A DNA stretch of 64,000 nt from Desulfobacterales bacterium (GCA_016209225.1 JACQWO010000003.1:13298-77297), one strand, 5' to 3'; counted from the stretch's first letter, positions 14,834 through 61,008 are shown. A program made the numbers and translations. The notes: generated by a model not told the origin, from the sequence alone.

Positions 14834-14857
14834 ACGGTTCACAGTTCACGGTTGAGG
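14834..14857. repeat. tandem heptamer array (ACGGTTCAC AGTTCAC GGTTGAG) upstream of trpB
   Basis: Three TTCACGG-like heptamers lie about 12 nt upstream of the trpB ribosome-binding site. Four other sites carry the same motif family. Confidence 0.5.
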
Positions 14858-14864
14858 AGTTATC

Positions 14865-14990
14865 GAGTAACTATTCAGGCACAAAGAGACAAAGGCACAT
14901 AGGCACAAAGGAGATCAGGGTCGTTTCGTTGTTTTTTCCTTCTTTGTGCCTTTGGTACTCTGTGCCTTTGCGCCTGCCTGAATAGTTACT
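14865..14990. repeat. complex palindromic repeat built from GGCACAAAG-type 9-mers and flanked by an AGTAACTATTCAGG arm
   Basis: The outer arms GAGTAACTATTCAGGC and GCCTGAATAGTTACT are complementary. The inner arms are inverted arrays of GGCACAAAG and CTTTGTGCC, and the region overlaps the trpF stop. Confidence 0.6.
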
Positions 14991-15601
14991 TGCTTTTTAA
15001 CTATTTTTATAAACTCTTCTAACTTAGCACGATCCTTTTTGCCTGGTTTAGATTCAACTCCACTGCTTACATCCACCCCATAGGGTTCTGCTGTCTGGAT
15101 TGCTTTCATAACATTGCCAGGATTAAGCCCTCCTGCAAGGATAACTCTGCCGGCAAATCTTTTTGCCTCAGAAGCGAGTTCCCAATTGAAGGCTTTTCCG
15201 CCCCCCCCATAGATTTCTTCATAATATGTATCGAGTAATACAGCGCTTACCTGATAAAAGGGAATAACCTCAAGGCACTTTCTGTCATTAATACTGAATG
15301 CTTTTATCACTTTTTTGTCGAAATGAGAACAGAAATCCGGTGATTCATTGCCATGGAACTGGAGGATGTCCAGGCAACAGTCTGCACTAATCTCTCTGAC
15401 TCTATCCTCTTTCTCATTAACAAACACCCCTACCGAGGATACGAAAGGGGGAAGCTTACGAATTATTTTCTTAGCCGCATCCTTTCGAATATAACGGGGG
15501 CTGTCTTTACAAAACACAAAACCCAGGGCATCAGCCCCAAGGTTTGCTGCCCAGGTAGCATCCTCTATATTGGTTATTCCGCAGATCTTGATCTTTGTCA
15601 T
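14915..15601 (-). CDS. trpF: phosphoribosylanthranilate isomerase, with an unusual 27 aa Lys-rich C-terminal extension
   Basis: MTKIKICGIT and the GVDVSSGVE motif identify TrpF. The last 81 nt of the gene are encoded by a palindromic repeat region. Confidence 0.9.
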   Translation of the reverse strand: MTKIKICGITNIEDATWAANLGADALGFVFCKDSPRYIRKDAAKKIIRKLPPFVSSVGVFVNEKEDRVREISADCCLDILQFHGNESPDFCSHFDKKVIKAFSINDRKCLEVIPFYQVSAVLLDTYYEEIYGGGGKAFNWELASEAKRFAGRVILAGGLNPGNVMKAIQTAEPYGVDVSSGVESKPGKKDRAKLEEFIKIVKKQVTIQAGAKAQSTKGTKKEKTTKRP

Positions 15602-15637
15602 TTACACCAGGACTAACCCCTCCTGAAAAGTGATCCA

Positions 15638-16342
15638 TCAATGGAAGGTCTTATCATTATTCTTCCCACCATCGATGATTTTATAACGCCTTTTAACCCT
15701 TGACCACTTCCATCTCATATAGTACCGGTATAAGAATCTCCATATACCATGGTAATTCAAGTATATTATACCAAAAACCATCCCCCCCAGGTGAGCAATG
15801 TGGGCAATGCCTCCACCTGTTCCAGCTATGGATGCATAGAGCTCAATTGCCCCAAATATCATAACAAAGTATTTTGCCTTGATGGGAAAGAATAGATAAA
15901 TATAAATAATGCGGTTAGGGAAAAACCAACCATAGGCTAAAAGGATACCATAGATTGCTCCAGACATTCCAATAGTAGGAATAAAGAGGTTAGGGGTTAT
16001 AAGCACAGTACATATTGCGGCACCAATGCCGGTAATAAAAAAGTACCTTAGAAATACCCTGGAACCCCAGTACCTTTCCAATTCACAGCCAAACATCCAA
16101 AGGGCAAAGAGATTAAATAATAAATGAAAAAATCCTCCGTGGAGGAATATATAGGTCCCCAATTGCCAAAGAAAATATTTCTGCCATACCAGAGCAGGAA
16201 CCAATCCAAAGATCAGGTTCATCTGCTGACCAACTATTGCTTGAAGCAAGAAGACCGCCCCTGATATGATTAAAAGCTTCTTAACAGTAGGGGTCATTGA
16301 AGGCCCAAAGGAAAGATATGGCCTTCGAGAGTAGTATTCCAT
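15638..16342 (-). CDS. rhomboid family intramembrane serine protease
   Basis: Multi-pass membrane protein with the active-site GMSGAIYG motif and a downstream AHLGG (His) motif. Confidence 0.85.
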   Translation of the reverse strand: MEYYSRRPYLSFGPSMTPTVKKLLIISGAVFLLQAIVGQQMNLIFGLVPALVWQKYFLWQLGTYIFLHGGFFHLLFNLFALWMFGCELERYWGSRVFLRYFFITGIGAAICTVLITPNLFIPTIGMSGAIYGILLAYGWFFPNRIIYIYLFFPIKAKYFVMIFGAIELYASIAGTGGGIAHIAHLGGMVFGIIYLNYHGIWRFLYRYYMRWKWSRVKRRYKIIDGGKNNDKTFH

Positions 16343-16358
16343 CTTATATTCCTTTTTG

Positions 16359-16429
16359 GGTAACCGTTTACGGTTACCCGTTTACGGTTTGTATTCTAGT
16401 AACTGTTAACTGTAAACCGTAAACGGTTT
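16359..16429. repeat. heptamer/palindromic repeat (GGTAACC GTTTACG GTTACCC GTTTACG ... AACCGTAAACGG)
   Basis: Direct TTTACGG heptamers plus an inverted partner lie in the divergent intergenic region 15 nt upstream of the rhomboid start. The region also contains AGTAACTGTTAAC, resembling the AGTAACTATTCAGG arm at the trpF repeat. Confidence 0.5.
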
Positions 16430-16571
16430 TGAAGGTTGAGGTACAAATATACCTGCTCCTTTTCTCAAGTCAAGGTATTTTTTCAGTACAAATAACTATT
16501 TGACAGTGAATGGATTGGATGCTAATCTTCGTATCAAAGTAAGTTTTTTATTTTTCAGGAGGAAATAGAGC

Positions 16572-17213
16572 ATGACGACAATACTCCTTGTTCGACATGG
16601 AGAGACCGATTGGAACAAACAGCAGGTATTTCGAGGAAGGATTGATGTACCCCTTAACTCTGTGGGGCTTGAACAGGCAAGGGCAACCGGTGAAGCCCTC
16701 AGTAATTACAAGATAGATGCAATTTATTCAAGCCCTTTGAGCAGGGCTATGGAGACAGCCAATGCCATCGGTAGGTCCCGCCCCTGTATCTCGATAAAAG
16801 AGGCAGAGGGTTTTATCGATATTGACTTTGGAAAATGGCAGGGTATGCCACATGACAGGGTAAATGAAGAACATAAGGAGCTTTATAATAAATGGCAAAG
16901 AGAACCTCATAATGTTAAGATGCCTGATGGTGAAAGCCTGGATGAGGTAAAACTCCGATCTATGGGAGCTCTAAATGACATACTTGCCAGACATGAAAAT
17001 GAGATCGTCGCAATCGCCTCACACAGGGTAGTAAATAAGGTGATTCTGTGTGCCGTACTGGGGCTGACCAATCAACATTTCTGGTGTATAAGACAGGATA
17101 CATGCGCAATAAACATATTCGACAACTCAGAGAGAGGATTTATTGTCTCTGTGATAAATGATACCTGCCATATCAAAGCACTGGCTGACAGCGCAAACAG
17201 GGCGGATTTTTAA
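16572..17213 (+). CDS. histidine phosphatase family protein (phosphoglycerate mutase-like)
   Basis: The sequence LLVRHGETDWN carries the RHG catalytic motif. The ribosome-binding site is AGGAGG. Confidence 0.8.
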   Translation: MTTILLVRHGETDWNKQQVFRGRIDVPLNSVGLEQARATGEALSNYKIDAIYSSPLSRAMETANAIGRSRPCISIKEAEGFIDIDFGKWQGMPHDRVNEEHKELYNKWQREPHNVKMPDGESLDEVKLRSMGALNDILARHENEIVAIASHRVVNKVILCAVLGLTNQHFWCIRQDTCAINIFDNSERGFIVSVINDTCHIKALADSANRADF

Positions 17214-17308
17214 GTAAGCGTTCATCTGTTAGCCATCAGGTCTCAGTAAAAAACAAATCCTTTAGCTTTTTTAAAAAGCCATTATATGTTTTGATAGAAG
17301 GTTCTGGT

Positions 17309-18085
17309 ATGTTAGTAGATTCTCACGCCCACCTGGATTTGCCTGAATTCGATGATGACCGAAATGAGGTTATCAAAAGGGCAAAAGATAGCGGAATAGA
17401 CTATATCCTTAATATTGGGATCAATTCGGATTCATGCATCAACACCATAAAACTGGCAGACTCTTACGATTTTATCTACGCATCCATTGGTATACATCCC
17501 CATGATGTAAAAAATATAAACAAAAACACCTATGCGGTTTTAAAGTCACTTGCCAATAACAAAAAAGTACTTGCTTTTGGAGAGATTGGCCTTGATTTTT
17601 ACCGTAATCTCTCTCCAAAGGGTACTCAAATCAAGAGGTTTCGAGAACAGATCAACCTAGCCAATGAATTAAAGCTTCCTGTTATAATCCATAATAGAGA
17701 TGCCCATAAAGAGACCCTGGAGATTTTGAAAGAAGACGGCGCCAAGAATCTGGGAGGGATTATACACTGTTTCTCAGGCGATTACTCTATGGCGAAGAGT
17801 TGTATAGATATGGGGTTTTATATCTCAATTCCTGGTACGATAACTTTCCCTAAGGCTGTAGAACTTCAGGAGATAGTAAAAAAACTACCCCTCTCAAAAA
17901 TAATGATCGAGACCGACTGCCCGTTTCTCACACCCGTTCCCTACCGGGGTAAGAGAAACGAACCCTCTTTTGTAAGATATGTGGCGGAAAAGATAGCTTC
18001 CCTTAAAGATACGTCCTTTGAAAAGGTGGCAGAGATTACGTCCCAAAACTTCAGAAGCCTTTTTGCTTCCTCACTAATCCCCTAA
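17309..18085 (+). CDS. tatD: TatD family metal-dependent DNase
   Basis: The canonical start MLVDSHAHL is at the internal ATG; the ORF-track start at 17291 is a TTG. IGLDFYRNLS and IIHCF (contains a His) are also present. Confidence 0.9.
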   Translation: MLVDSHAHLDLPEFDDDRNEVIKRAKDSGIDYILNIGINSDSCINTIKLADSYDFIYASIGIHPHDVKNINKNTYAVLKSLANNKKVLAFGEIGLDFYRNLSPKGTQIKRFREQINLANELKLPVIIHNRDAHKETLEILKEDGAKNLGGIIHCFSGDYSMAKSCIDMGFYISIPGTITFPKAVELQEIVKKLPLSKIMIETDCPFLTPVPYRGKRNEPSFVRYVAEKIASLKDTSFEKVAEITSQNFRSLFASSLIP

Positions 18086-18120
18086 ACACATTGTTTCGCA
18101 AGTAAGGTTGTTAATCCTCT

Positions 18121-18324
18121 CTATAAAACCGCCACTTTTTTCTTGTATGCCTTCCCCAGGTGATCCACAATGTTGCCGATCAGGTTATCTTGATTCTTAT
18201 CCTTCATGACTTTGCGATAGATGTTTCCATGGCAGAAAGCCGACTGTTCCACTTCTGTAAAATAGTTACCCGGGTTACGGTTCAGAACCAGCTTTCCAGT
18301 TAGTTTATTTCTTTTTTCTTCCAT
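18121..18324 (-). pseudogene. catalase remnant with an N-terminal truncation and an internal deletion
   Basis: 67 aa ORF containing the catalase motif LVLNRNPGNYFTEVEQSAF. This is fused directly to a catalase C-terminal-like segment, NLIGNIVDHLGKA. It encodes under 15% of a catalase. Confidence 0.6.
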
Positions 18325-18452
18325 TGACGGCCTCCTTTCTTTGTTTATAAGGTTACATCTGTATAACGCTGCGTATGAGGAGCATACTTTTACGAAAACT
18401 GCATCAGTTCTCTCCGTCTGCTTCCATATGCTTGGTTATGAAATGATCTGTT

Positions 18453-18911
18453 TTAGTGAGAACCTGCCACTGCTTTTATAAGTTCGTCAATCTTGTGGTC
18501 TAATTTTTCAACTGCCAACCAATAATCGTGCATCTTAGAATTGCTGACATCAGTCATCTTCTCTTTCTCAACGTCGATCTGAATCAGCTTATCACCTTTT
18601 GCTTTGACTATCTTCCATGTCTTTTTAATATCAGATAGAGCAGATGCCTTTTTGTCATTTAATTGCATAGTCTCCAGAGCGGAGATCATCCGGTTTATAG
18701 TATCGATATCGTCTTTATAGTCTTGCAATGCTATTCGCTGGTCATTGCGAGCACGGTCAGCGATATGAAAATAGATGGCAGCTGCCGACTCCCATAGGTT
18801 GGCTTCTATCTTGCCCAGTAGAAGCGTTGCCTTCCCTTCGGCAGCATGCACCACAGATAACGATGTAAAGATTATCAGCGCTATGATAATAGCATTAATG
18901 TATTTTTTCAT
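18453..18911 (-). CDS. exported alpha-helical hypothetical protein with a signal peptide
   Basis: 152 aa ORF. The N-terminus has a hydrophobic signal sequence ending VHA-AEG, and the rest is a predicted helical bundle. I recognise no family. Confidence 0.55.
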   Translation of the reverse strand: MKKYINAIIIALIIFTSLSVVHAAEGKATLLLGKIEANLWESAAAIYFHIADRARNDQRIALQDYKDDIDTINRMISALETMQLNDKKASALSDIKKTWKIVKAKGDKLIQIDVEKEKMTDVSNSKMHDYWLAVEKLDHKIDELIKAVAGSH

Positions 18912-18993
18912 AATAGAATGCTCCTTTGCTTTTGTTGGTTTTTTTATTTGTTAGAGATTTCAACATAGAACTGTTCTATTCAATCATTTGCTT

Positions 18994-19520
18994 TCACCTC
19001 CTATCAAAGCATAATGCACCATGCACAAGCACTTCTATAAATGGATTATCACTCATTTCACCATTCCAGTACCGTGATGCACGCTCCTGCCATTGGTCTT
19101 GAGAACCGTTTAACCAAATTGTATCTGCTCGGGAAAAATTTGACCCCTTTATTATTCTGCATTCATGAACTTCTTTGGGATCGTTTTGAAACCATTCTGC
19201 TTGGGCTCTTTCCGCCAAGCTATATTCATCAAAAACATATAAAGTTTTGATTCTTGGAGGGAGGTGGGGGAAATTTTTCGTCTGACTTCCTCGAATAACC
19301 TTTCTTCTAAATCTTCTATTCTTGACAAAGAATACAGAGTTTGAGCATTTTCGAGATGTGGCTCAGCTGCAATACCTACCGAAATAGATAGCAAAGCCCC
19401 CTTCCCGACCCGAACATTATTCTTAAACATATCCACATTAAATCCTGATGGCGGTACGAGGTGCCAATATACTTGGTCTCTAATTTCTTTTAGCCCCCAA
19501 CAAGTATTTACTGTTGCCAT
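18994..19520 (-). pseudogene. hypothetical gene apparently split by a frameshift (two overlapping ORFs)
   Basis: ORFs 19152-19520 and 18994-19218 overlap by 67 nt in different frames on the same strand. I recognise no family. Confidence 0.3.
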
Positions 19521-19633
19521 TATTTTGTGCCTTTATGCATAACAATTAAATATTACGAACTTAATCAATGATATTTGCCATTAATATGTGTCATAATTTT
19601 TAATGGAAAAACAAGAAGTTAGAAGGTAGTAGT

Positions 19634-21121
19634 TTAGTTCTTTATCTTCCAGATTGTGCCTTCAGGTTTGTCTTCCAGAGTAATACCCTTTTCGGTCAGT
19701 CGATCTCTAATATCATCTGCCAGTGTCCAGTTTTTCTCGGATCTTGCCTTCACCCTCTCTTCTATCAAACGAAGGATTTCCTTTTCATCTATCTCTATCT
19801 CAGATATCCCTTTTAGCTTCTGTTTCTCAAAATAATCCTCCGGGTCTGTGTTGAATAAACCAAGAACAGAGCCAATCTCCTTTAATGTCTCTCTTCCATA
19901 TTTCAATATGCCAATGGAGCTCGGTGACCTGTCAAATCCTGTTGTGTCGCTTATATACCTGTTCAGGAGTCTTACCCCCTCATAGATGTGACCGATGGCA
20001 AGGGCAGTATTGAAATCATCGTCCATTGCCTCTTCAAATTTTACAGAGAGAGCAGATAATGTTTCGTATAAATCCTTCTCTATTTTAGTCAGATTCTCCA
20101 ATGGGAGATTTTTGTCCTTGTTTTTGCTCCCTGTAAAATCATCTATGTTTTTTAAGGTAGTATATATCCTATCCAGACCTTTTTTAGCCTCTTCTATATT
20201 TTTATCAGAGAAATCTACAGGACTCCTATAATGATTTGATAGCAGGAAAAGGCGAATCACTTCCGGATGGTATCGCTCAAGTATCTCCTTTATGGTGAAG
20301 AAATTTCCAAGGGATTTGGACATCTTTTCTTTGTCAATATTGACGAAGCCATTATGTACCCAGTATTTAACAAAAGGCTTACCAGTAGCCCCCTCCGATT
20401 GGGCTATCTCATTTTCATGGTGAGGGAATATAAGGTCCTTTCCACCACCATGTATGTCAAATGTCACTCCAAGATACTTCTGGCTCATTGAAGAACATTC
20501 TATATGCCATCCAGGTCTCCCCTTTCCCCAGGGGCTATCCCAGGAAGGCTCCCCTGGTTTGCTTGCCTTCCAGAGGGCAAAATCCATGGGGTTTTCCTTC
20601 CTCTCATCTATTTCCACCCTGGCACCCGCATACATTTCCTCGATGGTTCTTCCGGAAAGCCTTCCATACCCCTGGAATTTGCTTACTGAGAAGAAGACAT
20701 CATCTTCTATCCTGTATGCATATCCGTTTTCAATAAGCCTCTCGATGGTCTTAATCATATCCGGGATATGGTCTGTTGCCTTTGGTTCTATAGTTGGGGG
20801 GGCAATTCCCAGTAGTTGCATATCCTTGTTAAACTCTTCTATGTATCTTTCCGAGATCTCCTGACAGCTGACCTTTTCACTGTTTGCCCTGTTGATTATT
20901 TTGTCATCCACGTCTGTGAAGTTTCTCACATAGGTTACCTCATAACCCTTATGCTTGAGATACCTGAAGATGACATCAAAGACAATTGTTGAACGGGCAT
21001 GACCGATATGGCACAGGTCATATACCGTAACGCCACAGGCATACATTCCAACTTTGCCTTTTTTTAAAGGTTCGAAGTCCTGTTTGGTTTTTGTCAGCGT
21101 GTTATATACCCTCAATGTCAT
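19634..21121 (-). CDS. cysS: cysteinyl-tRNA synthetase
   Basis: 495 aa ORF with HIGH (CHIGHARS) and KMSKS motifs and zinc-binding Cys residues typical of CysRS. Confidence 0.95.
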   Translation of the reverse strand: MTLRVYNTLTKTKQDFEPLKKGKVGMYACGVTVYDLCHIGHARSTIVFDVIFRYLKHKGYEVTYVRNFTDVDDKIINRANSEKVSCQEISERYIEEFNKDMQLLGIAPPTIEPKATDHIPDMIKTIERLIENGYAYRIEDDVFFSVSKFQGYGRLSGRTIEEMYAGARVEIDERKENPMDFALWKASKPGEPSWDSPWGKGRPGWHIECSSMSQKYLGVTFDIHGGGKDLIFPHHENEIAQSEGATGKPFVKYWVHNGFVNIDKEKMSKSLGNFFTIKEILERYHPEVIRLFLLSNHYRSPVDFSDKNIEEAKKGLDRIYTTLKNIDDFTGSKNKDKNLPLENLTKIEKDLYETLSALSVKFEEAMDDDFNTALAIGHIYEGVRLLNRYISDTTGFDRSPSSIGILKYGRETLKEIGSVLGLFNTDPEDYFEKQKLKGISEIEIDEKEILRLIEERVKARSEKNWTLADDIRDRLTEKGITLEDKPEGTIWKIKN

Positions 21122-22665
21122 TCTGTTTTTCTCCTGTCGAAATAGAATTCTCCTGGTTCTTCCCGAAGCTTCCTCAACTCATCCTTTTTTACACGGTGGG
21201 TCAATGTTCTTGGAAAATCCGTTCTATATACAATATATCGGGGAACTTTAAAATAGGCCAGCCTTTCTTCACAGAACTGTATCAACTCCATAGGAGGTAC
21301 GGTTTTATGGGTCTCTCCCTCTTTAAGGATAACATATACCTTTACCTCCTCGCCCCGAAGCTCATCAGGAAATGCAATGACAGCCGCTTCCTCTACCTTT
21401 GGATGAGATCGGATCACCTCTTCTACCTCCAGAGAGGAGATATTTTCACCGCTCCTTCTTATAATATCCTTTTTCCTGTCAACAAAATAGAAGAAGTTGT
21501 CCTCATCTCTATAGGCATTGTCCCCTGTGTGGAACCATCCCCCTCTCATTGAGGTTGAGGTAGTCTCGGGGTCTTTATAATAACCTTTTAAGACCATAGG
21601 TCCTCTCATAACAATCTCACCTACTGTGCCTGCGGGGACTTCTCTGTCATCTTTGTCGAATATCTTGATCTCATTGGGACCATGGGGTCTCCCGCATGAG
21701 CCCTTTTTATGGGGACCATTGATGTGCTCGATGGTTATCCCCCCTTCACTCATCCCCCAGTCCTGAAGCATCTTACATTCCCATCTCTTACCCAGACGCT
21801 CTGCAAGTTCAGGATGCCCGGCGCTCAACGCAACCCGAAGGGTATTATTCTTTTCATCCTCTGTGACCGGCAATTTGTCCAAAAAGGCAAGGATTGCCCC
21901 TATACAGTGAAATACCGTAACCTTGTGTTGATATGCCTGCTCCCAGAATTGCCGTGGGTGAAAACGGTCTATGAGGACAAGACTTGCACCACTGATTAAA
22001 GATGTCATAGTGATAACTACTTGGGCACCGATATGGAAGAGTGGAAGAACACAGATAAAACGGTCTTTTGAGGTTACAAGAAGGTTATCCTTAATCGATT
22101 CTGCAAAGGCGATATAATGGAAATGGCTGAGTACACACCCCTTTGGTTCACCGGTTGTCCCTGAGGTATACATGATGGAGAGAACATTTTCTCCTGTAAG
22201 TTTTTCTTCCGGTATTCGGATGCTTTCCTCGTTTATAATCAGGGAGAAATTGATTACCTCCGGATGCTCCTTATTTCCTACACAGAAAACAGCCTTTAAA
22301 TGGGGAAAATGCCTTCGTTTTTTCTGAATGATGTCTTCATAGAGGCCAGGCTCCGTAATCAATGTGTTTGCCTCGGAGTGGTCCAATATATAGGAAGCCT
22401 CTCTTTCTTTAAAGGCTACGTTTATGGGGACCATAATTGCACCCAGCTTGGCTATTCCAAACCAACTATAGAGAAATTCAGGGCAGTTGTTGAGAAACAA
22501 AGCCACCCGGTCTCCCTTTTTTACACCTTCTTTTTTTAATGCAGATGCCACACTATTGACCCTTTTACCAAAAGTGCTGTAAGAAATTTCGTCATCCTTG
22601 AAGAAGAGAAAGGTCTTATCGGGTTGAATTTTTATCTGGCGTTTCAATACGTCATTCAGATTCAT
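21118..22665 (-). CDS. AMP-dependent synthetase/ligase (fatty-acyl-CoA ligase, FadD-like)
   Basis: 515 aa ORF with the AMP-binding motif YTSGTTGEPKG and a C-terminal ...GK region. It overlaps the cysS start. Confidence 0.85.
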   Translation of the reverse strand: MNLNDVLKRQIKIQPDKTFLFFKDDEISYSTFGKRVNSVASALKKEGVKKGDRVALFLNNCPEFLYSWFGIAKLGAIMVPINVAFKEREASYILDHSEANTLITEPGLYEDIIQKKRRHFPHLKAVFCVGNKEHPEVINFSLIINEESIRIPEEKLTGENVLSIMYTSGTTGEPKGCVLSHFHYIAFAESIKDNLLVTSKDRFICVLPLFHIGAQVVITMTSLISGASLVLIDRFHPRQFWEQAYQHKVTVFHCIGAILAFLDKLPVTEDEKNNTLRVALSAGHPELAERLGKRWECKMLQDWGMSEGGITIEHINGPHKKGSCGRPHGPNEIKIFDKDDREVPAGTVGEIVMRGPMVLKGYYKDPETTSTSMRGGWFHTGDNAYRDEDNFFYFVDRKKDIIRRSGENISSLEVEEVIRSHPKVEEAAVIAFPDELRGEEVKVYVILKEGETHKTVPPMELIQFCEERLAYFKVPRYIVYRTDFPRTLTHRVKKDELRKLREEPGEFYFDRRKTE

Positions 22666-22973
22666 GGTCTCCCCTTGGGAATCTGCTGAGCACTAAAAAT
22701 ATCTTTGTTTTCATCATGGGATCATTATATAATAAGATCAATTGCTGTCAAATTAAATCCAGACCATTTGATATAAATCTCTTCAAGTAACGTAACCATC
22801 AGTTGACAGAGTGGAATCTGAATGTTTACAAAAAGGTCATTTGTCCATGCAGTCTTTTCTCTTTGTAATTTCTTGGCGATCGATTTTCCTTGTCTTTCCA
22901 AGTAGTTGTCGTTTTATCAAGTACGTTTTCCCCTTTGGCACGATTTTTGAGTTATCTAAAAAATTTATAGGGG

Positions 22974-23918
22974 TTGTCAGGTTTTCATATGTTTGAATCT
23001 AGAGTTGATGCCCTTTATAGAATATTAGAAGATTGTGCTTTATGTCCAAGGCAATGCCACGTCAACAGGAGAGTCGGCCAGTTGGGTTACTGCAATGCCG
23101 GATTTAACTTGAAGGTGGCGAAGGTGATTTCCCACTTGGGTGAAGAGCCGGCAATTTCAGGAAACAAGGGTTCCGGTGCAATATTCTTCAGTCACTGCAA
23201 CCTGAGATGTAGCTTCTGCCAAAACTATCAGATAAGCCAACTGGGGATGGGGGAAGAGATGACTCCTGAATATCTTTCAAAAAGGATGCTTTCACTCCAA
23301 AATTCCGGTTGCCATAACATAAACCTGGTGACACCAACACCGTACTTGCCCCAGATAGTAAGAGCCATTTCAATGGCGAAGGCTAATGGTTTGAAGATAC
23401 CGATTGTATATAATACAAACGGTTATGAAAGAGTAGAGACCTTGAAATTACTGGAGGGGATAGTGGATATATACCTTCCTGATGCCAAATACGGAAGTAA
23501 TAAGGCTGCCTCTTTTTATTCTGGTGTAGAGGACTATTTGGAACATAATATATCGGCTTTGAAAGAGATGAAGAGGCAGGTTGGTAATCTTAAAGTGAAC
23601 AATATGGATATTGGAGAAAAAGGTATTATCGTAAGACACCTGGTACTTCCAGGAAATGGCGCAGAATCCTTTTCTCTTTTAGATATGGTTGCTGGAGAAC
23701 TGGGGACAGACATCTCTATAAGTCTTATGGGACAGTACTTTCCCAGGTATAAGGTATTGGATAGTGAGGCACTGGGAAGAAGACTAACCAATGAAGAATT
23801 TGAGGAATACCACTTCGCCCTGGAATCAAAGGGCTTTGAAAATGGATGGGTCCAGTACCCCGACGAGGTTGATGGTGGTTTTCTGCCTGATTTTCAAGTG
23901 AAGGATGGGTGGAATTAG
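22974..23918 (+). CDS. radical SAM protein, PflX-like (COG1313)
   Basis: An N-terminal CALCPRQCHVNR motif, plus CNLRCSFCQN as the CxxxCxxC radical-SAM cluster motif. Confidence 0.8.
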   Translation: MSGFHMFESRVDALYRILEDCALCPRQCHVNRRVGQLGYCNAGFNLKVAKVISHLGEEPAISGNKGSGAIFFSHCNLRCSFCQNYQISQLGMGEEMTPEYLSKRMLSLQNSGCHNINLVTPTPYLPQIVRAISMAKANGLKIPIVYNTNGYERVETLKLLEGIVDIYLPDAKYGSNKAASFYSGVEDYLEHNISALKEMKRQVGNLKVNNMDIGEKGIIVRHLVLPGNGAESFSLLDMVAGELGTDISISLMGQYFPRYKVLDSEALGRRLTNEEFEEYHFALESKGFENGWVQYPDEVDGGFLPDFQVKDGWN

Positions 23919-23923
23919 AACGC

Positions 23924-23947
23924 AAAAATGAATGAATGTTCATTTTT
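23924..23947. promoter_or_regulatory. AT-rich palindrome AAAAATGAA-TGAATG-TTCATTTTT sharing the core TGAATGAA-NN-TTCATT with the site at 63736
   Basis: Perfect 9 bp arms. It lies 6 nt after the radical-SAM stop, is followed by a T7 run, and sits about 150 nt upstream of hdrC. It is either an operator or a weak intrinsic terminator. Confidence 0.35.
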
Positions 23948-24002
23948 TTACTTGACGACACGTAACTTGCGTGTTACAAGTAATATCGTAACTGCGAAGA
24001 AC

Positions 24003-24065
24003 GATAGGCTGTAGCCTATTAGCCTGTAGCCTAACAGCCTTCAGCCTAACGACCTGTTAATCAAC
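24003..24065 (+). promoter_or_regulatory. AGCCT/AGGCT pentamer array upstream of hdrC, duplicated at 29236-29400
   Basis: The sequence GATAGGCTGTAGCCTATTAGCCTGTAGCCTAACAGCCTTCAGCCTAACGACCTG ends 30 nt before the hdrC ATG. A near-identical sequence lies before the flxB-like gene. Confidence 0.4.
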
Positions 24066-24094
24066 TAAATAGTTTAACAGAAGAGAGTTTAACA

Positions 24095-24658
24095 ATGATA
24101 TACCAATTAAATGCCGATGTAAGAAATTTTGGGAAAACCATATCTAAACTCAGTGATGTGGATATATATACCTGTTATCAGTGCGGGAAGTGTACTGCCG
24201 GTTGTCCCATTGTGATGGAGATGAGCCATACCCCAAATCAAATAATGAGATTGATTCAACTGGGACTAAAAGAAGAGGTTTTGAATTCTCTGACACCCTG
24301 GTTGTGTGCCGCTTGCGAAACCTGTACAACCCGTTGCCCTAAAGGGGTGGACATCGCCAAGATTATGGATACCCTGAGGATACTTGCTCGCAAAGAGGGT
24401 TATCAGTCTAAGGAACCAAATGTAGTGAAGTTCAATGATATTTTCTTGAACTGTATAAAGGACAAGGGAAGATTGCAGGAGACGCATTTGGCTATGGTGT
24501 ATAACTTAAAAACCAAGCAGTTTTTTAAGGATGCTGATATAGGCCGGAAGTTATTTATGAAGGGAAAGATATCCCTTTCCAGTGATAAAATAAAAGGTAC
24601 GGATGCGATGAAGAGTATCTTTGAGAGATCAAGGGCGTTTTTGGGCAAAGGGGAATAG
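24095..24658 (+). CDS. hdrC: heterodisulfide reductase subunit C
   Basis: Two 4Fe-4S motifs, CYQCGKCTAGCP and CAACETCTTRCP. Confidence 0.85.
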   Translation: MIYQLNADVRNFGKTISKLSDVDIYTCYQCGKCTAGCPIVMEMSHTPNQIMRLIQLGLKEEVLNSLTPWLCAACETCTTRCPKGVDIAKIMDTLRILARKEGYQSKEPNVVKFNDIFLNCIKDKGRLQETHLAMVYNLKTKQFFKDADIGRKLFMKGKISLSSDKIKGTDAMKSIFERSRAFLGKGE

Positions 24659-24661
24659 ATT

Positions 24662-25537
24662 ATGGTATATGGATATTATCCAGGCTGCTCCTCTCATGGT
24701 ACGGCCAAGGAATATGATATTTCAACAAAGAAAGTTTGTGAGAGATTAGGATTGAAACTGGAAGAAGTGAGAGATTGGAACTGTTGTGGTGCCTCGCCAG
24801 CCCATGCTACCAGTGAAGAACTCGCCCTGGCATTACCCTTCAGAAATCTGGTCCTGGCTGAGAAACAAGGTCTGGATAGCATAATGTCCACTTGTTCCGC
24901 CTGTTACAATCGCCTTAAAGTTGCCCATGAGACACTGAAAAAAGCTCCTGAGATATTGAATAGAATGAGCGAAATAGTTGGAGAACCTTATAATAAGACT
25001 CTTAAGGTTATTCACTTCCTGGATCTTATCTCGAAGGAGTTTGGTGTAGAGAAAATAAAGGAAAGTGTGGTAAAGCCTTTAACGGGTTTAAAGGCTGTAT
25101 CATATTATGGTTGCCTTTTGACAAGACCCCCAAAGCTGGTATCTATTGACCCGGATGGAGAAAATCCCACTATAATGGAGGAGATTATAGAGGCATTGGG
25201 GGCAGAATCACCTTATTGGTCTCACAAAACGGAGTGCTGTGGCGCCAGTTTTGCCCTGGATAGAACGGATATTGTCTTGAGGTTGAGCAACGAAATTCTA
25301 AAAGCTGCCAGGTTTGCTGATGCGGATTGCATTATTGTTGCCTGTCCTTTGTGTTTTGCCAACCTGGATATGAGACAGTCACAGATAGCTTCCAAATATG
25401 GTATTAATTATTCCTTACCTGTCTTATTTATTTCCGAGTTGATGGGTGTAGCTATAGGAATGGGCAATAAGGAACTTGGGATTGATAAGCATATTGTTAG
25501 TGCAAAGAATCTATTAAAAGAAAAGGATTTGATCTAA
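24662..25537 (+). CDS. hdrB: heterodisulfide reductase subunit B (two CCG domains)
   Basis: The two Cys-rich CCG motifs read CCGASPAHA...CSAC and CCGASFAL...CPLC. Confidence 0.9.
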   Translation: MVYGYYPGCSSHGTAKEYDISTKKVCERLGLKLEEVRDWNCCGASPAHATSEELALALPFRNLVLAEKQGLDSIMSTCSACYNRLKVAHETLKKAPEILNRMSEIVGEPYNKTLKVIHFLDLISKEFGVEKIKESVVKPLTGLKAVSYYGCLLTRPPKLVSIDPDGENPTIMEEIIEALGAESPYWSHKTECCGASFALDRTDIVLRLSNEILKAARFADADCIIVACPLCFANLDMRQSQIASKYGINYSLPVLFISELMGVAIGMGNKELGIDKHIVSAKNLLKEKDLI

Positions 25538-25585
25538 AAAAAGGACTTTGGAAAGGTATCCCTTCAAAGTCCTCAATCTAAAGAA

Positions 25586-25741: not shown

Positions 25742-25758
25742 AAAGAAGGGGTGTCACT

Positions 25759-27729: not shown

Positions 27730-27740
27730 TTATAAAGAGG

Positions 27741-27762
27741 GGTAACAGGTTACAGGGTTCAG
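27741..27762. repeat. tandem heptamer array GGTAACA GGTTACA GGGTTCA G upstream of mvhD
   Basis: From the same motif family as the arrays at 14834, 16359, 43253 and 60952. Confidence 0.4.
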
Positions 27763-47114: not shown

Positions 47115-47119
47115 AGTTT

Positions 47120-48939: not shown

Positions 48940-50355
48940 ATGACAATGGATCAAAGTAAAGATAATGCCATTGAGAGACTTTTCCATGAAGTGCAAGACA
49001 CCAAGTATCAAAGGTACCCGCATAATGGACTCTGTGTTGTAATAATATCTGGTCTAAATAACACCAGTAAAGCGGCACTCTTAAACAGAGATCATATCAT
49101 TTGGCACTTCCCTTTCACTATTGGAAGAACCTCACCGGAGGACAGATTTGCTTTTAAGTGACAGGATCTAATTCTTGCTGATAACAGGCCCTACCGTATT
49201 TCACGACAACACCTTTCCGTAGAAAGACGCGAAGATCAAATAGCTCTGGTCGATAGGAACAGCAAATTCGGATCGTGGGTTAACAATACTTTACTTGGGA
49301 AGAATGCAGCAGGTGGTAAGGAGGAGATAACGCTGAGGTATGGGGAAAATGAGGTCATTTTAGGAGGGCAAACTTCTCCCTTTATTTTTCAAATGCGAGT
49401 CATAAAAAGCGAGGACGTAGATGTTCTTTATGACTATGTTAAATGGCGGGATCATATGATCCCTGTCGCAGCACTTTACATCCGACTCTGTCATGCCACA
49501 AGTGATATCATTACCTCTTCGAACTATGATACCCACGATCGGATACAAAGGGCTTTGGATCTAGTAGTGGGTATCATTGCTTATCCAGAAACTATAGACA
49601 TGCTGTATTATTACTCTGCCCATCCTGATACGTTTGAAGACTTAATTGTTGCTCACTCGGTCAATGTAGCTATCTATACCATTAAAATGGCTCTTAGTTT
49701 ATCCTACTCCAAGGATGAGGCAACAATAATAGGCGTAGCCGCCTTACTTCATGATATTGGTTTGTATGATATTCCTAGAAGTATCATAGACAAAAGGAGA
49801 ATTATCTCCAAAAAAGAATACGATGTTATAAAGAAACATTCGAACATAGGTTACGAAAAACTTCTAGAAGTTGCCAATGATTACAAGCTTATTCCCCAGA
49901 TTGCTCTTGAACATCATGAACGTGTGGATGGCAACGGTTATCCCAACGGGATTAAGAAACTCTCGGATAATACAGAACTTATTGGGATGATAGATTTCTT
50001 TGAGGCAGTGACCCATTATCGTCCCCAAAGGGGCCCAATAACTCCTCATGAAGGCATTAAAATACTATTGGACCTGAGACATAGCGTGTTCAGCATTAAC
50101 CTGACTAAGGCTTTCCTCAATGTGTTCTCCACCTTTCCTGCATATAGTGTTATTCGTTTGAATTCGGGAGAAATAGGACAGGTAGTAAAAGTCAAGATAA
50201 ACTGGCCCCTCAGACCTACGGTCAGGATGCTCTTTAGAAACGATGGTCAACCGATAGAGGGAGAAAAAGAGATTGACCTCGTACAGAATAAAGACCTTTT
50301 CATTGCCAAAGATATCTCAGATCGTGTATTCATCGATAATTATTTCAAGTTATAG
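48940..50355 (+). pseudogene. FHA-domain / HD-GYP phosphohydrolase gene interrupted by an in-frame TGA at 49159-49161
   Basis: ORFs 48940-49161 and 49393-50355 share a frame, and the intervening 231 nt are open. The TGA falls inside an FHA domain (...FTIGRTSPEDRFAFK-TGA-QDLILADNRPYRISRQHLSV...). Confidence 0.5.
49393..50355 (+). CDS. HD-GYP domain protein (minimal ORF downstream of the TGA)
   Basis: The HD motif (LLHDIGL) and the GYP motif (HHERVDGNGYP) are both present. Confidence 0.7.
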   Translation: MRVIKSEDVDVLYDYVKWRDHMIPVAALYIRLCHATSDIITSSNYDTHDRIQRALDLVVGIIAYPETIDMLYYYSAHPDTFEDLIVAHSVNVAIYTIKMALSLSYSKDEATIIGVAALLHDIGLYDIPRSIIDKRRIISKKEYDVIKKHSNIGYEKLLEVANDYKLIPQIALEHHERVDGNGYPNGIKKLSDNTELIGMIDFFEAVTHYRPQRGPITPHEGIKILLDLRHSVFSINLTKAFLNVFSTFPAYSVIRLNSGEIGQVVKVKINWPLRPTVRMLFRNDGQPIEGEKEIDLVQNKDLFIAKDISDRVFIDNYFKL

Positions 50356-52479: not shown

Positions 52480-52920
52480 ATGGAGTTTGCCGTGTTAAAG
52501 TTACTTATGCCTTATCACCTCAAGCTAAAGGTAGAACGTTCTTATCAATGGCTTCAAGACAGACTCGTAAGAACCTGTGTACGGGAAGATGTCAAAGATA
52601 TTAGACACGCCCAAACAATTCTTCATCGCAAACTTCAACGATACAACTACAGGCAAGTTCACTCAACCACCCAGGAGGTTCCTTACTATCGGTTTCAAAG
52701 GGCCCTTAACGAAGGCAAATCCCTGTTCCGAGAATTTAAAGTACCTTATATATCTCTTAACGGGATACAACTAAAAGTCAAAAACGCTACCCCCAGAGAG
52801 ACGGTCTCCCTCCGGATTTATCCCCTTAATCAAACCGTCTCTGAGTTTAGACTCTGGCATCAAAATCCTGAAGAGCACTCAAGGGGTACGCGCTCGCACT
52901 GTATCCTGCCCCGTGCTTGA
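52480..52920 (+). pseudogene. C-terminal remnant of a DDE (rve-type) transposase (IS21/Mu-like C-terminal domain)
   Basis: ...LQRYNYRQVHSTTQEVP resembles the end of the integrase core, W.YN.ERPH..LG..TP. A Mu/IstA-like C-terminal domain follows. No catalytic DDE part lies upstream, and the gene is adjacent to the tRNA. Confidence 0.45.
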
Positions 52921-52939
52921 CACGGGGCAGGATACAGTG
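52897..52939. other. perfect 19 bp stem hairpin (CACTGTATCCTGCCCCGTG / CACGGGGCAGGATACAGTG, loop CTTGA)
   Basis: Read directly from the sequence. The 3' arm merges into the partial MITE. Confidence 0.6.
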
Positions 52940-52972
52940 CAACGCCGCAGATGGACTTTTTACGAAGCCATC
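52931..52972 (+). repeat. partial MITE copy (the 3' terminal 42 bp only)
   Basis: GATACAGTGCAACGCCGCAGATGGACTTTTTACGAAGCCATC matches the last 42 bp of the full copies with a single mismatch (GATACAG versus GATGCAG). Confidence 0.55.
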
Positions 52973-52995
52973 AAAGTTGATTTTGGGGGATTTTT

Positions 52996-53072
52996 TGGTG
53001 GCGGTGCAGGGATTTGAACCCCGGACACTGCGGATATGAGCCGCATGCTCTAACCAACTGAGCTACACCGCC
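52996..53072 (-). tRNA. tRNA-Met (anticodon CAT), with CCA encoded
   Basis: A cloverleaf reads directly from the sequence. The acceptor stem is GGCGGTG/CACCGCC, the D-arm GCTC-AGTTGGTTA-GAGC, and the anticodon loop CUCAUAU. I cannot tell elongator Met from Ile2 (lysidine) by eye. Confidence 0.8.
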
Positions 53073-58767: not shown

Positions 58768-58810
58768 TTGAGTTTTACCTCCTTCTTTTAATTACGCTTC
58801 TATTAATCTC

Positions 58811-59593
58811 TCACCTTCCCACAAACTTGGGAGCCCTCTTTTCAACGAATGCTGTCATCCCTTCTTTCTGATCAGCGGTTGAAAAGGCAACTCCCATTGC
58901 ATCGATGTCTCTGTATACCCCATCCGGATCAGGAGAATCCTGAGCTTCATTAAGGGCTTGTTTAGCCAGCTTTAAAGTAATCCCACTCTTTGATGCAATA
59001 TTACGGGCCAAGGACTTAACCTCATCCAAAAACTTATCTGCAGGGAAGACCCTGTTTGCCAATCCAATATCTTGGGCGGTCTTTGCATCAATAGGGTCTC
59101 CAACGAAGACCAACTCTTTCGCCATCCTCATCCCAACAGCTCGGGCTAAACGATACATTCCCCCCGCGCCAGGAAACACCCCTATTTTTATTTCAGGGAC
59201 ACCAAATTTTGCTTTTTCTGATGCAACTATAAAGTCACAGGCCAAAGCCAGTTCACACCCCCCTCCAAAGGCAATTCCGTTTACTGCGGCTATCACTGGC
59301 TTAGGCATTCTCCCAATGGCCTCAAATGAATCGAACAATGCCCTGGCCCATTCTCTGGCTTCACAGGAGTTAGCATCTTTAAGTTCTTTTATGTCTGCGC
59401 CAGCGGCAAATGCCCTTCCCTGACCGGTTACAATAATAACCCTCACTTCATCGTCTTCCCTTAAGATTTCTGCTGCTTTTCTCAGGTCTCTACCCACTTC
59501 GGCATTGAGGGCATTCAACGCATCAGGCCTATTCAGGGTTATAACTGCTAGTCCGCCCTCATCTTTTGAAACTATTATGTTCTTATATTCCAT
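58811..59593 (-). CDS. enoyl-CoA hydratase/isomerase (crotonase)
   Basis: GQGRAFAAGADI and AAVNGIAFGGGCELALACD match the crotonase fold. Confidence 0.9.
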   Translation of the reverse strand: MEYKNIIVSKDEGGLAVITLNRPDALNALNAEVGRDLRKAAEILREDDEVRVIIVTGQGRAFAAGADIKELKDANSCEAREWARALFDSFEAIGRMPKPVIAAVNGIAFGGGCELALACDFIVASEKAKFGVPEIKIGVFPGAGGMYRLARAVGMRMAKELVFVGDPIDAKTAQDIGLANRVFPADKFLDEVKSLARNIASKSGITLKLAKQALNEAQDSPDPDGVYRDIDAMGVAFSTADQKEGMTAFVEKRAPKFVGR

Positions 59594-59649
59594 AACAACC
59601 TCTCCTTTTTGACGTCATCCCTTACTGACTTCCACACAACAGCGGGCTC

Positions 59650-59673
59650 AACAGCGGGCTTAAGCCCGCTGTT
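59650..59673. promoter_or_regulatory. perfect 24 bp palindrome AACAGCGGGCTT|AAGCCCGCTGTT, with an extra direct half-site at 59638-59648
   Basis: It lies 57-80 nt upstream of the crotonase start and downstream of a TTGACA hexamer (reverse complement at 59763-59768). I read it as a candidate operator. Confidence 0.4.
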
Positions 59674-59788
59674 ATATGTTCAACATTGAACCAATGAAAC
59701 CAATCAAACAACTCTATTCACCTGTGTCTAAAAAGGAAATTCCTATACGATCTAATTACTATTGTCAAGGGGGTTTTAGAGAATTTTT

Positions 59789-60931
59789 TTAAACGCCCAG
59801 TTCTCTAGCTATGACAATCTGCTGAATCTCTGAAGTCCCTTCAGTAATGGTTAGAAGTCTTGCATCCCGCCAATGGCGCTGAACAGGATATTCCATTATA
59901 TATCCATATCCACCATGTATCTGCATGGCTTCACTGGTAACCCTTTGAGCCACCTCACTCGCGTAGAGTTTTACCATTGAGGCCTCTTTCATACAGTCTT
60001 TCCCCTGATCAAACAACCAGGATGCCCTATATGTCAACCACCTGGCAGCCTCAATCTCCATCGCCATCCTGGCCAGTTTGAATTTGGTTACCTGAAAATC
60101 CTTTATGGGTTTGCCAAATTGAACCCTTTCACCAGCATATCGAATGGATGCATCCAAGGCCGCCCTTGCTACCCCGATACACCTTCCACCATAGGAAATC
60201 CTTCCACTCTTGAGGGTGGCTATCAGGTAGGGGAACCCCTTCCCTTCCTCTCCCACCAACTTATCTTGTGGAACCCTGCAGTCTTCGAAGAGCAACTCTG
60301 CAGTGTCAGCCGAACGGTTCCCTACTTTCTTCAACTTTCTGGTAACAGAATAACCAGGGGTGCCTTTATCCACGATGAGTATGCTTACTCCGCCTTTGGA
60401 ACCCTTGCTTTTGTCAGTGTATGCAGCCACACAGATATAATCGGCAATACTTCCATTGGTGATGAATATCTTCCTGCCATTTATCACATAATGATCCCCA
60501 TCCTTTACTGCCGTTGTCTGTATTGACGCTGCATCAGAACCAGCATTGGGTTCTGTGAGGCCAAAGGCTGATATCCTCTCACCTTTAATGGCCGGGACAA
60601 GGTACTCCTGTTTCTGTTCCTCTGTCCCATGCTCAAGAATCATGGACGTACCAAGGCTAGATTGGACAAGAAGTCCGGAACCTATCCCAGAGCACACCCG
60701 CATAAGCTCTTCTATGTAGATATTTTCAGTGAGCTTATCTGTCCCTGCAGCGCCGTACTTTTCAGGATACCTGACACATAGGAAACCCAGCTTTCCAGCC
60801 TTGGGAATTATCTCCACAGGATAGACCTCTGTCTCTTCTGCCTCTTCAACCAGTGGTCCTATCTCATTTTCAGCGAAGTTTTTTATTGCCTCCCTAAATA
60901 TCCTTTGCTCCTCTGTAAACTCAAAATCCAT
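59789..60931 (-). CDS. acyl-CoA dehydrogenase
   Basis: 380 aa ORF (MDFEFTEEQ...EGTSEIQ). The ribosome-binding site is AAGGAGGGG. Confidence 0.9.
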   Translation of the reverse strand: MDFEFTEEQRIFREAIKNFAENEIGPLVEEAEETEVYPVEIIPKAGKLGFLCVRYPEKYGAAGTDKLTENIYIEELMRVCSGIGSGLLVQSSLGTSMILEHGTEEQKQEYLVPAIKGERISAFGLTEPNAGSDAASIQTTAVKDGDHYVINGRKIFITNGSIADYICVAAYTDKSKGSKGGVSILIVDKGTPGYSVTRKLKKVGNRSADTAELLFEDCRVPQDKLVGEEGKGFPYLIATLKSGRISYGGRCIGVARAALDASIRYAGERVQFGKPIKDFQVTKFKLARMAMEIEAARWLTYRASWLFDQGKDCMKEASMVKLYASEVAQRVTSEAMQIHGGYGYIMEYPVQRHWRDARLLTITEGTSEIQQIVIARELGV

Positions 60932-60951
60932 TTTGTCCCCTCCTTAAGTAG

Positions 60952-61008
60952 TTCAAGGTTCACGGTTCACGGTTCAGGATTTAACGGTGAACGGTAAACG
61001 GTGAACGG
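60952..61008. repeat. tandem heptamer array of about 8 units (TTCAAGG TTCACGG TTCACGG TTCAGG at TTAACGG TGAACGG TAAACGG TGAACGG)
   Basis: It lies in the 5' leader immediately upstream of the acd ribosome-binding site, between the thiolase stop and the acd start. Confidence 0.55.

Follow-up and report, generated by a model that had tools for sequence, protein, structure and literature searches.

Does a short sequence repeated in tandem just ahead of a start codon serve the gene that follows, or has it only come to rest there? A stretch of 64,000 nt from a Desulfobacterales bacterium (GCA_016209225.1 JACQWO010000003.1:13298-77297), hereafter the window, raises this question. A preliminary description of its sequence had listed five head-to-tail arrays of heptamers related to TTCACGG, placed upstream of trpB, a rhomboid gene, mvhD, a dksA-like gene, and an acyl-CoA dehydrogenase gene (acd). 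Our analysis leads us to consider it probable that the arrays are the subterminal arms of small nonautonomous elements, of the kind of miniature inverted-repeat transposable elements (MITEs) or mobile insertion cassettes (MICs), that derive from a cassette carrying a four-helix-bundle gene and resembling an rRNA intervening sequence (IVS). These elements were probably inserted recently into the spacers between genes and are not conserved regulatory sites.

Results

Arrays of the window and the elements that contain them

Heptamer runs of the GTTCAC or GTTTAC type are present at all five sites and exceed what chance would supply. The two-unit probe GGTTCACGGTTCACGG, allowed up to three mismatches, matches the window five times where 0.21 matches are expected, and the degenerate probe GGTTYACRGTTYAC, allowed one mismatch, matches six times where 0.10 are expected; no shuffle equalled either count. 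Period-7 arrays under a strict criterion number five, compared with 0.4 in shuffles, and four of the five lie in noncoding DNA, which makes up 16% of the window in a crude gene map that assigns the other 84% to coding sequence.

Although the arrays themselves are real, their description needs correction. The supposed eight head-to-tail units at 60952-61008 are instead four units, a short loop, and four inverted units (GTTCAAG GTTCACG GTTCACG GTTCAGG, loop, then ACGGTGA ACGGTAA ACGGTGA ACGG), with the acd Shine-Dalgarno sequence AAGGAGG directly beyond the pair. Likewise, the sequence at 16359-16429 consists of two palindromic or inverted blocks rather than a head-to-tail run. An array does occur at 27741-27762, but it belongs only loosely to the TTCACGG family (GGTAACA GGTTACA GGGTTCA) and is the left arm of an 87-bp inverted-repeat element. 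Placement of the arrays in 5' leaders is right for 16359 and plausible for 43253, whereas 14834, 27741, and 60952 fall in the spacers of what look like operons, between genes of one direction; for the array beginning at 14830, this is the spacer of trpF and trpB, and the trpB start is 23 nt away. Finally, an AGTA..TTCAGG motif reported to adjoin three of the arrays is real and specific at 14866 but only weakly resembled at 16398 and 60947. With up to two mismatches, motifs of this type match six times against 1.05 expected, and the matches include 14977(-), 29222(+), and 29396(-), which had been missed.

Tandem Repeats Finder and a search for inverted repeats revealed further arrays with a 7-8-nt period that had also escaped notice, at 14877-14911/14942-14975, 23990-24062, 29236-29265/29370-29395, 30503-30532, and 35830-35857/35964-35991. 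They lie in neighboring spacers and are built of other unit sequences (TAGCCTG/CAGCCTT, AATTCAG, AGGCACAA, and AGGATTCA). In total, at least five unit families occur within 64 kb, mostly as inverted pairs and in mixed orientation relative to the downstream gene (Table 1).

Table 1. Array-bearing elements of the window, with predicted RNA folds
Element	Position	Strand	Sequence and setting	Fold (kcal/mol; z)
Solo 5'-arm remnant	14830-14857	+	GCTTACG GTTCACA GTTCACG GTTGAGG, then GAGGAG resembling a ribosome-binding site	none predicted
125-bp MITE-like hairpin	14866-14990		terminal inverted repeats AGTAACTATTCAGG / CCTGAATAGTTACT, exact complements	-54 to -60; z = -7.6 to -7.7
Palindromic/inverted heptamer block	16359-16429		GGGTAACCGTTTACGGTTACCC; GTTTACGGTTTG...TAAACCGTAAAC; rhomboid 5' leader	z = -4.2 / -5.6 (16355-16435)
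TAGCCTG/TAGCCTA/CAGCCTT heptamer array	23990-24062	+	GTAACTGCGAAG before array; leader of hdr/mvh-like operon	
87-bp inverted-repeat element	27742-27828		GTAACAGGTTACAGGGTTCAG... / ...CCCTGTGAACTTTAC; ends GTAACAGGTTACAGGG/CCCTGTGAACTTTAC	z = -2.9
187-bp MITE-like element	29222-29408		terminal repeats GTAACTACTTAGG / CCTGAGTAGTTAC, at 29222/29396	-68.7; z = -5.5
AATTCAG-type heptamer array, about 4 units	30503-30532	+	spacer before FAD/NAD-binding subunit gene	
Hairpin with arms of 8-nt units	35830-35991	+	AGGATTCA.. / CTTGAATC x3	-56; z = -7.7
Solo arm	43249-43273	+	GTATCC GTTCACA GTTTACG GTTGG; dksA-like leader, 35 nt before GTG start	none predicted
Inverted pair of GTTCAC-type arms, 4 + 4 units, short loop, no open reading frame	60947-61011		between thiolase and acyl-CoA dehydrogenase genes	weak (see Discussion)

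Several of the elements end in a 13-nt terminal inverted repeat, GTAACTA(C/T)T(C/T)AGG. In the 125-bp element, the ends as scored are GTAACTATTCAGG and CCTGAATAGTTAC at 14867 and 14977, and the arms inside them consist of 8-nt units (AGGCACAA, four times). The 187-bp element carries inverted subterminal arrays of AGGCTGN heptamers and is flanked by a target duplication, AAATAAG, at 29215-29221 and 29409-29415. The same terminal repeat, GTAACTAYTYAGG, thus flanks arrays built of different units (AGGCTGN in one case, AGGCACAA in the other). The 87-bp element is bracketed by copies of AAAGAGG(G/T) at 27734-27741 and 27829-36, a direct repeat that includes the ribosome-binding site of mvhD. Outside the window, the terminal repeat recurs in L009, L064, L109, L123, L126, L130, L131, L136, and L169, where L-numbers denote loci or contigs fetched from other genomes or metagenomes. 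Perfect 8-bp target duplications enclose L126:3264-3362 (AACTTAAG) and L130:1327-1798 (AAAGATAA), and the flanking repeats of L123 and L136 match at seven of eight positions. Together, these terminal repeats and duplications point to transposition, whether cut-and-paste or copy-and-paste, for which a transposase would be supplied in trans.

The GTATCCGTTCAC end of the solo arm at 43249 recurs at 61011-61000(-) and in L093, and the block at 16359-16429 is followed by the 5'-arm junction GGTTTTGAAGGTTGAGG; a promoter-like site, 16473-16446(-), lies upstream of this block. In trpF, part of the open reading frame (ORF), 14915-15001(-), runs through the 125-bp element, which supplies the last 29 codons. 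Because trpF reads 29 codons into the insertion, its C-terminal tail and stop codon have been replaced, and the product has 228 residues compared with 192-209 in relatives.

Empty orthologous sites

Contigs of close relatives, fetched through neighboring proteins, show empty spacers at orthologous positions where protein identity is 78-96%. The thiolase-acd spacer has 88 nt in the window and 12 nt in L124, whose acd is 92% identical; in L125 (86%), it holds an unrelated 149-nt hairpin. The mvhD spacer has 113 nt here and 19-21 nt in L127, L128, and L129. Deleting 27742-27828 together with one copy of the bracketing repeat in silico leaves a 19-nt spacer that is colinear with L129. The next spacer of this hdr/mvh-like operon has 205 nt here, compared with 40 nt in L126 (neighboring protein 94% identical) and 30 nt in L127 and L128; at the exact site of the 187-bp element, L126 has a 24-nt palindrome, TGATGGATTTTTACGAAGCCATCA. 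Between trpF and trpB, the window has about 190 nt, a figure that includes the 29 codons trpF gains from the element, compared with 16 nt in L210 (TrpB 96% identical) and 13 nt in L214 (94%).

The relatives differ not only in total length but also in which element each possesses. The 125-bp element is absent from L210, L211, and L214, and the array at 14830 is absent from L210 and L214; in L211 and L212, a three-unit array is present between trpF and trpB with one single-nucleotide difference and without the 125-bp element. A homologue of the latter is found in L126 at another locus, 3264-3362. Ahead of the hdr/mvh-like operon, where the window has the array at 23990, the counterpart in L127 is another element, bounded by GGTAATAGTTCAG..CTGAACTAATTAC, and both are lacking in L129. 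The spacer at 30503 has 126 nt here and 95-102 nt in relatives, whose sequence is unrelated.

Unit number varies as well. At 16359-16429, L211-L213 carry the same element, with one arm shorter by a heptamer than in the window and the other arm longer by a heptamer, and no array occurs upstream of the rhomboid gene in L210 and L214. The suggestion that the arrays are hotspots of slipped-strand mispairing thus receives partial support, in that one array differs by one unit per arm between relatives with 96% identical TrpB. At the acd site, three metagenomic copies (Logan contigs) are identical to the window and so are uninformative on copy-number variation.

A gene-bearing cassette with the same arms

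A scan for (GGTTYAC)3, with one genome per species and a taxon list that is a sample rather than a census, returned at least 120 stretches from many phyla, and an inverted partner array lies close by in 43 of the 120 listed. In the Desulfobacterota metagenome-assembled genomes (MAGs) L123, L034, L064, L009, and L109, the terminal repeat GTAACTACTCAGG is followed by (GGTTCAC)n, by GGTTGGAGAGCG-ATG, and by an ORF; 3' of the ORF come (GTGAACC)n and then CCTGAGTAGTTAC. L123 has an intact ORF, L064 and L034 have decayed versions, and in L009 a deletion has left ATGAAGATTGA. The ORF encodes about 125 residues that match TIGR02436 ("four helix bundle protein") at 2.2e-28 and PF05635 (Pfam 23S_rRNA_IVP) at 1.3e-29. 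This family, PF05635/TIGR02436, is very large and has no known function; its members have come to notice chiefly in rRNA intervening sequences and as Avd, the accessory protein of diversity-generating retroelements (DGRs). In the same scan, inverted heptamer arrays also flank a four-helix-bundle gene at one Verrucomicrobiota, one Acidimicrobiia, and one Bacteroidales locus.

Gene and arms are interlocked in these cassettes. In L123, L130, and others, the ORF runs into the downstream array and stops there (ending in VANREP or HLNP), and the (GTGAACC)n arm therefore provides the last codons and the TGA stop. In the fold of the full L130 cassette (z = -4.1), a single stem built from the terminal repeats and the arms closes the structure.

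The arms of the window are homologous to those of the cassette. An nhmmer profile of the cassette 5' arm has its top five window matches at 60951-61010 (E = 2.4e-8), 14834-14864 (E = 0.0014), the terminal repeat at 29394-29408, 16404-16425, and 43255-43274 (E = 0.17). Apart from the terminal repeat, these matches fall on sites named in the preliminary description. The hairpin at 35830-35991, in turn, encloses an ORF tail ending in WNDLDYIKAGELKKLQADIGEVERMLKALTKSLENKHLNP and a stop (in a longer reading, LDYIKAGELKKLQADIGEVERMLKALTKSLENKHLNP and a stop). When the translation of 35790-35975 is compared with NCBIfam, the sole family listed is TIGR02436, through a weak match to its last 34 positions (76-109 of 109; E = 0.027, under the family cut-off), and this fragment is the top-ranked ORF fragment of the window for a local four-helix-bundle profile (E = 0.15). 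The hairpin thus seems to have kept the C-terminal end of a gene for a four-helix-bundle protein.

Loci fetched by the protein

The association was also approached from the protein side. With an alignment of three protein sequences as the query and the repeats ignored, 80 metagenomic loci were fetched. At least three GTTC motifs occur within 110 nt upstream of the gene at 44 of 79 loci and at least three GAAC motifs within 130 nt downstream at 41 of 74, compared with 30 of 2091 control windows (1.4%) by the same criterion. Spacing from one GTTC to the next is 7 nt in 82 cases and 8 nt in 42. A short-period array lies within 200 nt of the gene at 56 of 80 loci, and 57 of the 76 arrays have a period of 7. 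The two flanks are inverted-complementary at 40 of 64 gene loci: upstream flanks aligned with reverse-complemented downstream flanks give a median score of 17.5, compared with 8.5 in the direct orientation. GGTTCAN units typify the nearest relatives of L123, and distant relatives have other units that contain GTTC; the GTTC/GAAC core, the 7-8-nt period, and a fixed polarity to the gene are kept across protein relatives of 49-93% identity.

Other repeats

A second, unrelated dispersed element of about 150 bp occurs in the window at 10489-10643, 11431-11585, approximately 25575-25748, and 47119-47273, with solo ends at 52957-52973 and elsewhere. Its inverted ends are TGATGGACTCGTAAAAAGTC / GACTTTTTACGAAGCCATCA, with 11 end-matches compared with 0.3 expected. 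It is present in L211, has two matches in the Desulfobacterales MAG L063, and is absent from the same spacers of L210, L214, L127, and L129; a spacer that holds it has 182 nt here and 27 nt in relatives. The solo end adjoins a perfect 20-bp inverted repeat at 52896-52940 (GCACTGTATCCTGCCCCGTG / CACGGGGCAGGATACAGTGC, 5-nt loop), which has the end of an ORF, 52480-52920, on one side and a tRNA gene, 52999-53072(-), on the other.

The trpB-trpA spacer (13489-13623, 135 nt) contains AGGATTCAAGGGG, which has the same start as the arm of the 35830 hairpin, and a hairpin of GGGCAATCCC..GGTTGCCC. These contents are common to L211; in L210 and L214, the two genes are directly adjacent or overlap. In L214, the PTPS-GCHY spacer is filled by a similar GGGCAATCC hairpin.

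In Pyrinomonadaceae and other Acidobacteriota (L004, L008, L010, L012, L021, L038, L047, L048, L095, L098, and many more), a hairpin of 80-100 nt is present in many copies per genome, many of them directly after a stop codon. It has the structure (GTRAACC)3 GTGACAAG - loop - CTTGTCAC (GGTTYAC)3. Because its arms come in the reverse of the order in the Desulfobacterota cassettes, with GTGAACC first, the family may be separate or convergent. Very long GGTTTAC/GGTTGAC/GGTTCAC arrays, of about 15 to more than 30 units, were found in L050 (4860-5110 and 5840-5970), L102 (5280-5650; Desulfobacterales bacterium HSG2), L114 (Opitutales), and L099, and far exceed any array of the window in length. At the two HSG2 loci, they are paired with equally long inverted arrays.

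Discussion

We propose that the parent of the elements is a cassette of about 470 bp, a form that other Desulfobacterota MAGs contain intact, in which the 13-nt terminal repeat GTAACTACTCAGG is followed by (GGTTCAN)3-5, a ribosome-binding site, a gene of about 125 codons, (NTGAACC)3-5, and the inverted terminal repeat. A transposase supplied in trans would move the cassette and create an 8-bp target duplication, and internal deletion would then give rise to ORF-less hairpins of 60-190 bp and to solo arms, which are the contents of the window. The purine-rich sequence that separates a stop codon from the following ribosome-binding site is short, and the elements may insert into it or be tolerated nowhere else, which would be a simpler explanation of their closeness to start codons. 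The duplication or the element itself would re-create the ribosome-binding site, so that the downstream gene stays translatable. Once transcribed, the arms would pair into a long, periodically mismatched stem like the ends of rRNA intervening sequences; by analogy, this stem would probably be cut by RNase III or act as a stabilizing hairpin. Unit number could drift through replication slippage. We would expect no regulatory role in the host, and secondary effects on mRNA fate are possible.

Several observations weigh against this proposal. Within the 1.3 Mb of DNA that was fetched, neither a transposase with matching ends nor two terminal repeats at a distance of 1-4 kb turned up; movement in trans is thus something that we infer. 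Neither terminal repeats nor target duplications can be recognized in the acd-site element or in the solo arms at 14830 and 43249, and the grounds for considering these mobile are homology and the empty site. The acd-site pair is also a weak hairpin (-23 kcal/mol, z = -1.1), because each heptamer adds one C.C or G.G mismatch. No clear target duplication is seen at 14866-14990, L131, or L169. The window holds no intact four-helix-bundle gene, tblastn with the L123 protein finds no match in it, and, next to the weak TIGR02436 match of the putative remnant, Pfam finds nothing in 35790-35975. Among the 80 loci fetched by protein, about a quarter to half lack an array under the criteria used, and control windows of these loci carry short-period arrays at a rate of 12%. 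The terminal repeat occurs only in the protein subfamily closest to L123, and other cassettes have arrays alone.

Could the arrays instead be sites at which something binds? They might be read, through the GTTC core on DNA or RNA, by a host regulator, a nucleoid protein, or the four-helix-bundle protein of the cassette. The persistence of core, period, and polarity across relatives of 49-93% identity would fit such a role, and a cassette-encoded reader is possible: the homologous protein Avd works bound to nucleic-acid-handling partners. Moreover, both in Beggiatoaceae (PMC4679880) and in Nostoc (bioRxiv 10.1101/2022.06.06.494920), heptamers close to start codons have been suggested to serve as sites for a regulator. 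The idea of a recognition array, raised in the preliminary description, finds no support for the host genes, however, as relatives whose proteins are 92-96% identical lack the sites at the orthologous positions, and the orientation of the sites relative to the downstream gene is mixed. For any reader of the arrays, it is awkward that one terminal repeat flanks unrelated arrays of AGGCTGN and AGGCACAA, and the inheritance of gene and arms as a unit would explain the conservation without binding. We therefore regard binding sites as a distinctly unlikely explanation. To the possibility that the arrays are RNA structures selected by the host, such as terminators, attenuators, or mRNA-stabilizing hairpins that tune operon expression, we assign a very small probability. 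Strong hairpins do lie between co-directional genes, just upstream of ribosome-binding sites, but they are absent from the same operons in close relatives, and Rfam at gathering thresholds finds only one tRNA in the window, with no known RNA family and no rRNA. Intrinsic terminators were considered and rejected: of the 18 terminator-like sites (GC stem plus T-run) in 14000-31000, not one falls on an element in the strand that is transcribed.

Two further explanations concern how such repeats arise. Heptanucleotides are the most abundant class of long simple-sequence repeats in most genomes (Mrazek et al. 2007, as cited in PMC4679880), and the arrays could be ordinary repeats of this class, born by slippage in AT-rich spacers, immobile, and without a link to any gene. 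Both the one-unit length difference at 16359-16429 and the arrays at 30503 and 43255, which have no terminal repeat, are compatible with this origin. Slippage, however, cannot make inverted partners, 13-nt terminal inverted repeats, 7-8-bp duplications, or non-orthologous copies, and it leaves unexplained why the junction between arm and ribosome-binding site is identical in sequence to that of gene-bearing cassettes in other MAGs. This explanation, already largely contradicted for the elements with terminal repeats, seems to us very unlikely overall. The other candidate is the repetitive extragenic palindrome (REP), or the paired form known as REPIN, spread by a REP-associated tyrosine transposase (RAYT). 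The suggestion of a dispersed, composite REP-like element was right in substance, as inverted-repeat insertions with terminal repeats, target duplications, and empty orthologous spacers are indeed a dispersed element, although they behave like MITEs or MICs and not like REP/RAYT elements. Short palindromic intergenic repeats do occur as inverted pairs, and the window has a Y1 transposase gene of the IS200-like type, 48074-48583(-), which encodes 169 residues (Pfam Y1_Tnp, 3e-21) and is the sole transposase gene present; an 809-nt noncoding stretch, 48584-49392, lies upstream of it. On NCBIfam, its product scores 79.9 bits as an IS200/IS605 TnpA (cut-off 55) and 29.8 bits with the RAYT model (cut-off 80), and we have rejected a RAYT origin on these scores, which assign the gene to the IS200 type. 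Its flanks contain none of the heptamer or 150-bp repeat families within the 64 kb examined. Finally, neither REPs nor Y1 transposition give rise to target duplications, whereas duplications of 7-8 bp are present here. We give this origin almost no credence.

If the arrays are, as we favor, arms of mobile cassette derivatives, then the heptamer runs of this genome should be annotated as insertion scars and not as operators; they can alter gene ends, as with the 29 codons added to TrpF, and put hairpins into operons. Members of PF05635/TIGR02436 are typically bracketed by inverted arrays with a 7-8-nt period and a conserved GTTC core, and one subfamily would travel in a cassette that ends in terminal inverted repeats and duplicates 8 bp of its target, leaving deleted derivatives in intergenic spacers. 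This provides a testable hypothesis for the recognition target of the protein and for the spread of intervening sequences, and a possible mechanistic source of heptamer repeats near start codons in several phyla. A broader proposal, which we offer as speculative and on balance unlikely, is that the PF05635 (S23p/Avd-like) genes of many phyla are the cargo of one unrecognized class of self-contained hairpin cassettes. Their arms, with a GTTC core every 7-8 nt, would act as cis sites for recognition by the pentameric protein that the cassette encodes, for cleavage by RNase III, or for both, leading to self-excision from rRNA or mRNA. Were this true, rRNA intervening sequences, the ORF-less hairpins of Desulfobacterota, Acidobacteriota, and Bacteroidota, and perhaps some repeats resembling short tandemly repeated repetitive (STRR) sequences would be one element. 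Literature on the repeat sequence, and on the family names together with repeats, yielded no description of a general association beyond a paper on the Coxiella IVS (PMC4990558), and apart from that note the general link of the gene family with heptamer arms appears to be undescribed.

The elements combine features of several known systems. They are like MITEs and MICs in having terminal inverted repeats, 7-8-bp duplications, lengths of 60-490 bp, and no internal transposase, as well as copies at different loci, presence or absence between relatives, and both long gene-carrying and short deleted forms. MICs have terminal inverted repeats, no transposase, and sometimes a passenger gene. Here, the passenger is always a four-helix-bundle gene, no cognate autonomous insertion sequence was found in the 1.3 Mb of fetched DNA, and the subterminal arrays of inverted tandem 7-8-nt units are not usual for MITEs. 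With REPs, REPINs, and bacterial interspersed mosaic elements (BIMEs), they share short palindromic intergenic repeats, inverted pairs, and many copies, but they have target duplications, their arms are tandem arrays rather than one imperfect palindrome, and no RAYT is found in the 64 kb.

A resemblance to the cyanobacterial STRR heptamers and to the heptamers of other phyla is also evident. TAACTGA direct repeats are found in marine Beggiatoaceae, cyanobacteria, and Bacteroidetes (PMC4679880), and heptamer repeats occur near start codons in Nostoc (bioRxiv 10.1101/2022.06.06.494920); a regulatory role was proposed for both. As here, the arrays are head-to-tail heptamers of 2-8 units, almost exclusively intergenic, often tens of nucleotides from a start, and patchy across phyla. 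The TAACTGA repeats differ in being overwhelmingly direct, in one orientation, and abutting the start codon, with one inverted set in 170 (PMC4679880), whereas inverted pairs, terminal repeats, and target duplications are the rule here, several units are used, and the arrays are tied to a gene cassette. The TAACTGA paper makes no mention of a four-helix-bundle or IVS gene (PMC4679880), and the accessible part of the Nostoc preprint draws no link to that family (bioRxiv 10.1101/2022.06.06.494920).

The 23S rRNA intervening sequences with an S23p ORF, known from Coxiella, Leptospira, Brucella, and Xanthomonas (PMC4990558), share with the cassette a gene of the same family, PF05635/TIGR02436, which occupies the loop of a hairpin whose stem is closed by terminal inverted repeats. 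The Coxiella hairpin, with its S23p ORF and terminal stem, is excised by RNase III, as is also known in Salmonella and Leptospira, and two or three tandem heptamers (GACAGAT), variable in number between strains, precede the ORF, which is decaying (PMC4990558). The authors of that study called the sequence a "selfish genetic element" and cited earlier proposals of IVS mobility (PMC4990558). The copies described here are found outside 23S rRNA helices, in 5' leaders and in the spacers of protein-coding operons; many of them have lost the ORF, and a subset has transposon-like ends and target duplications.

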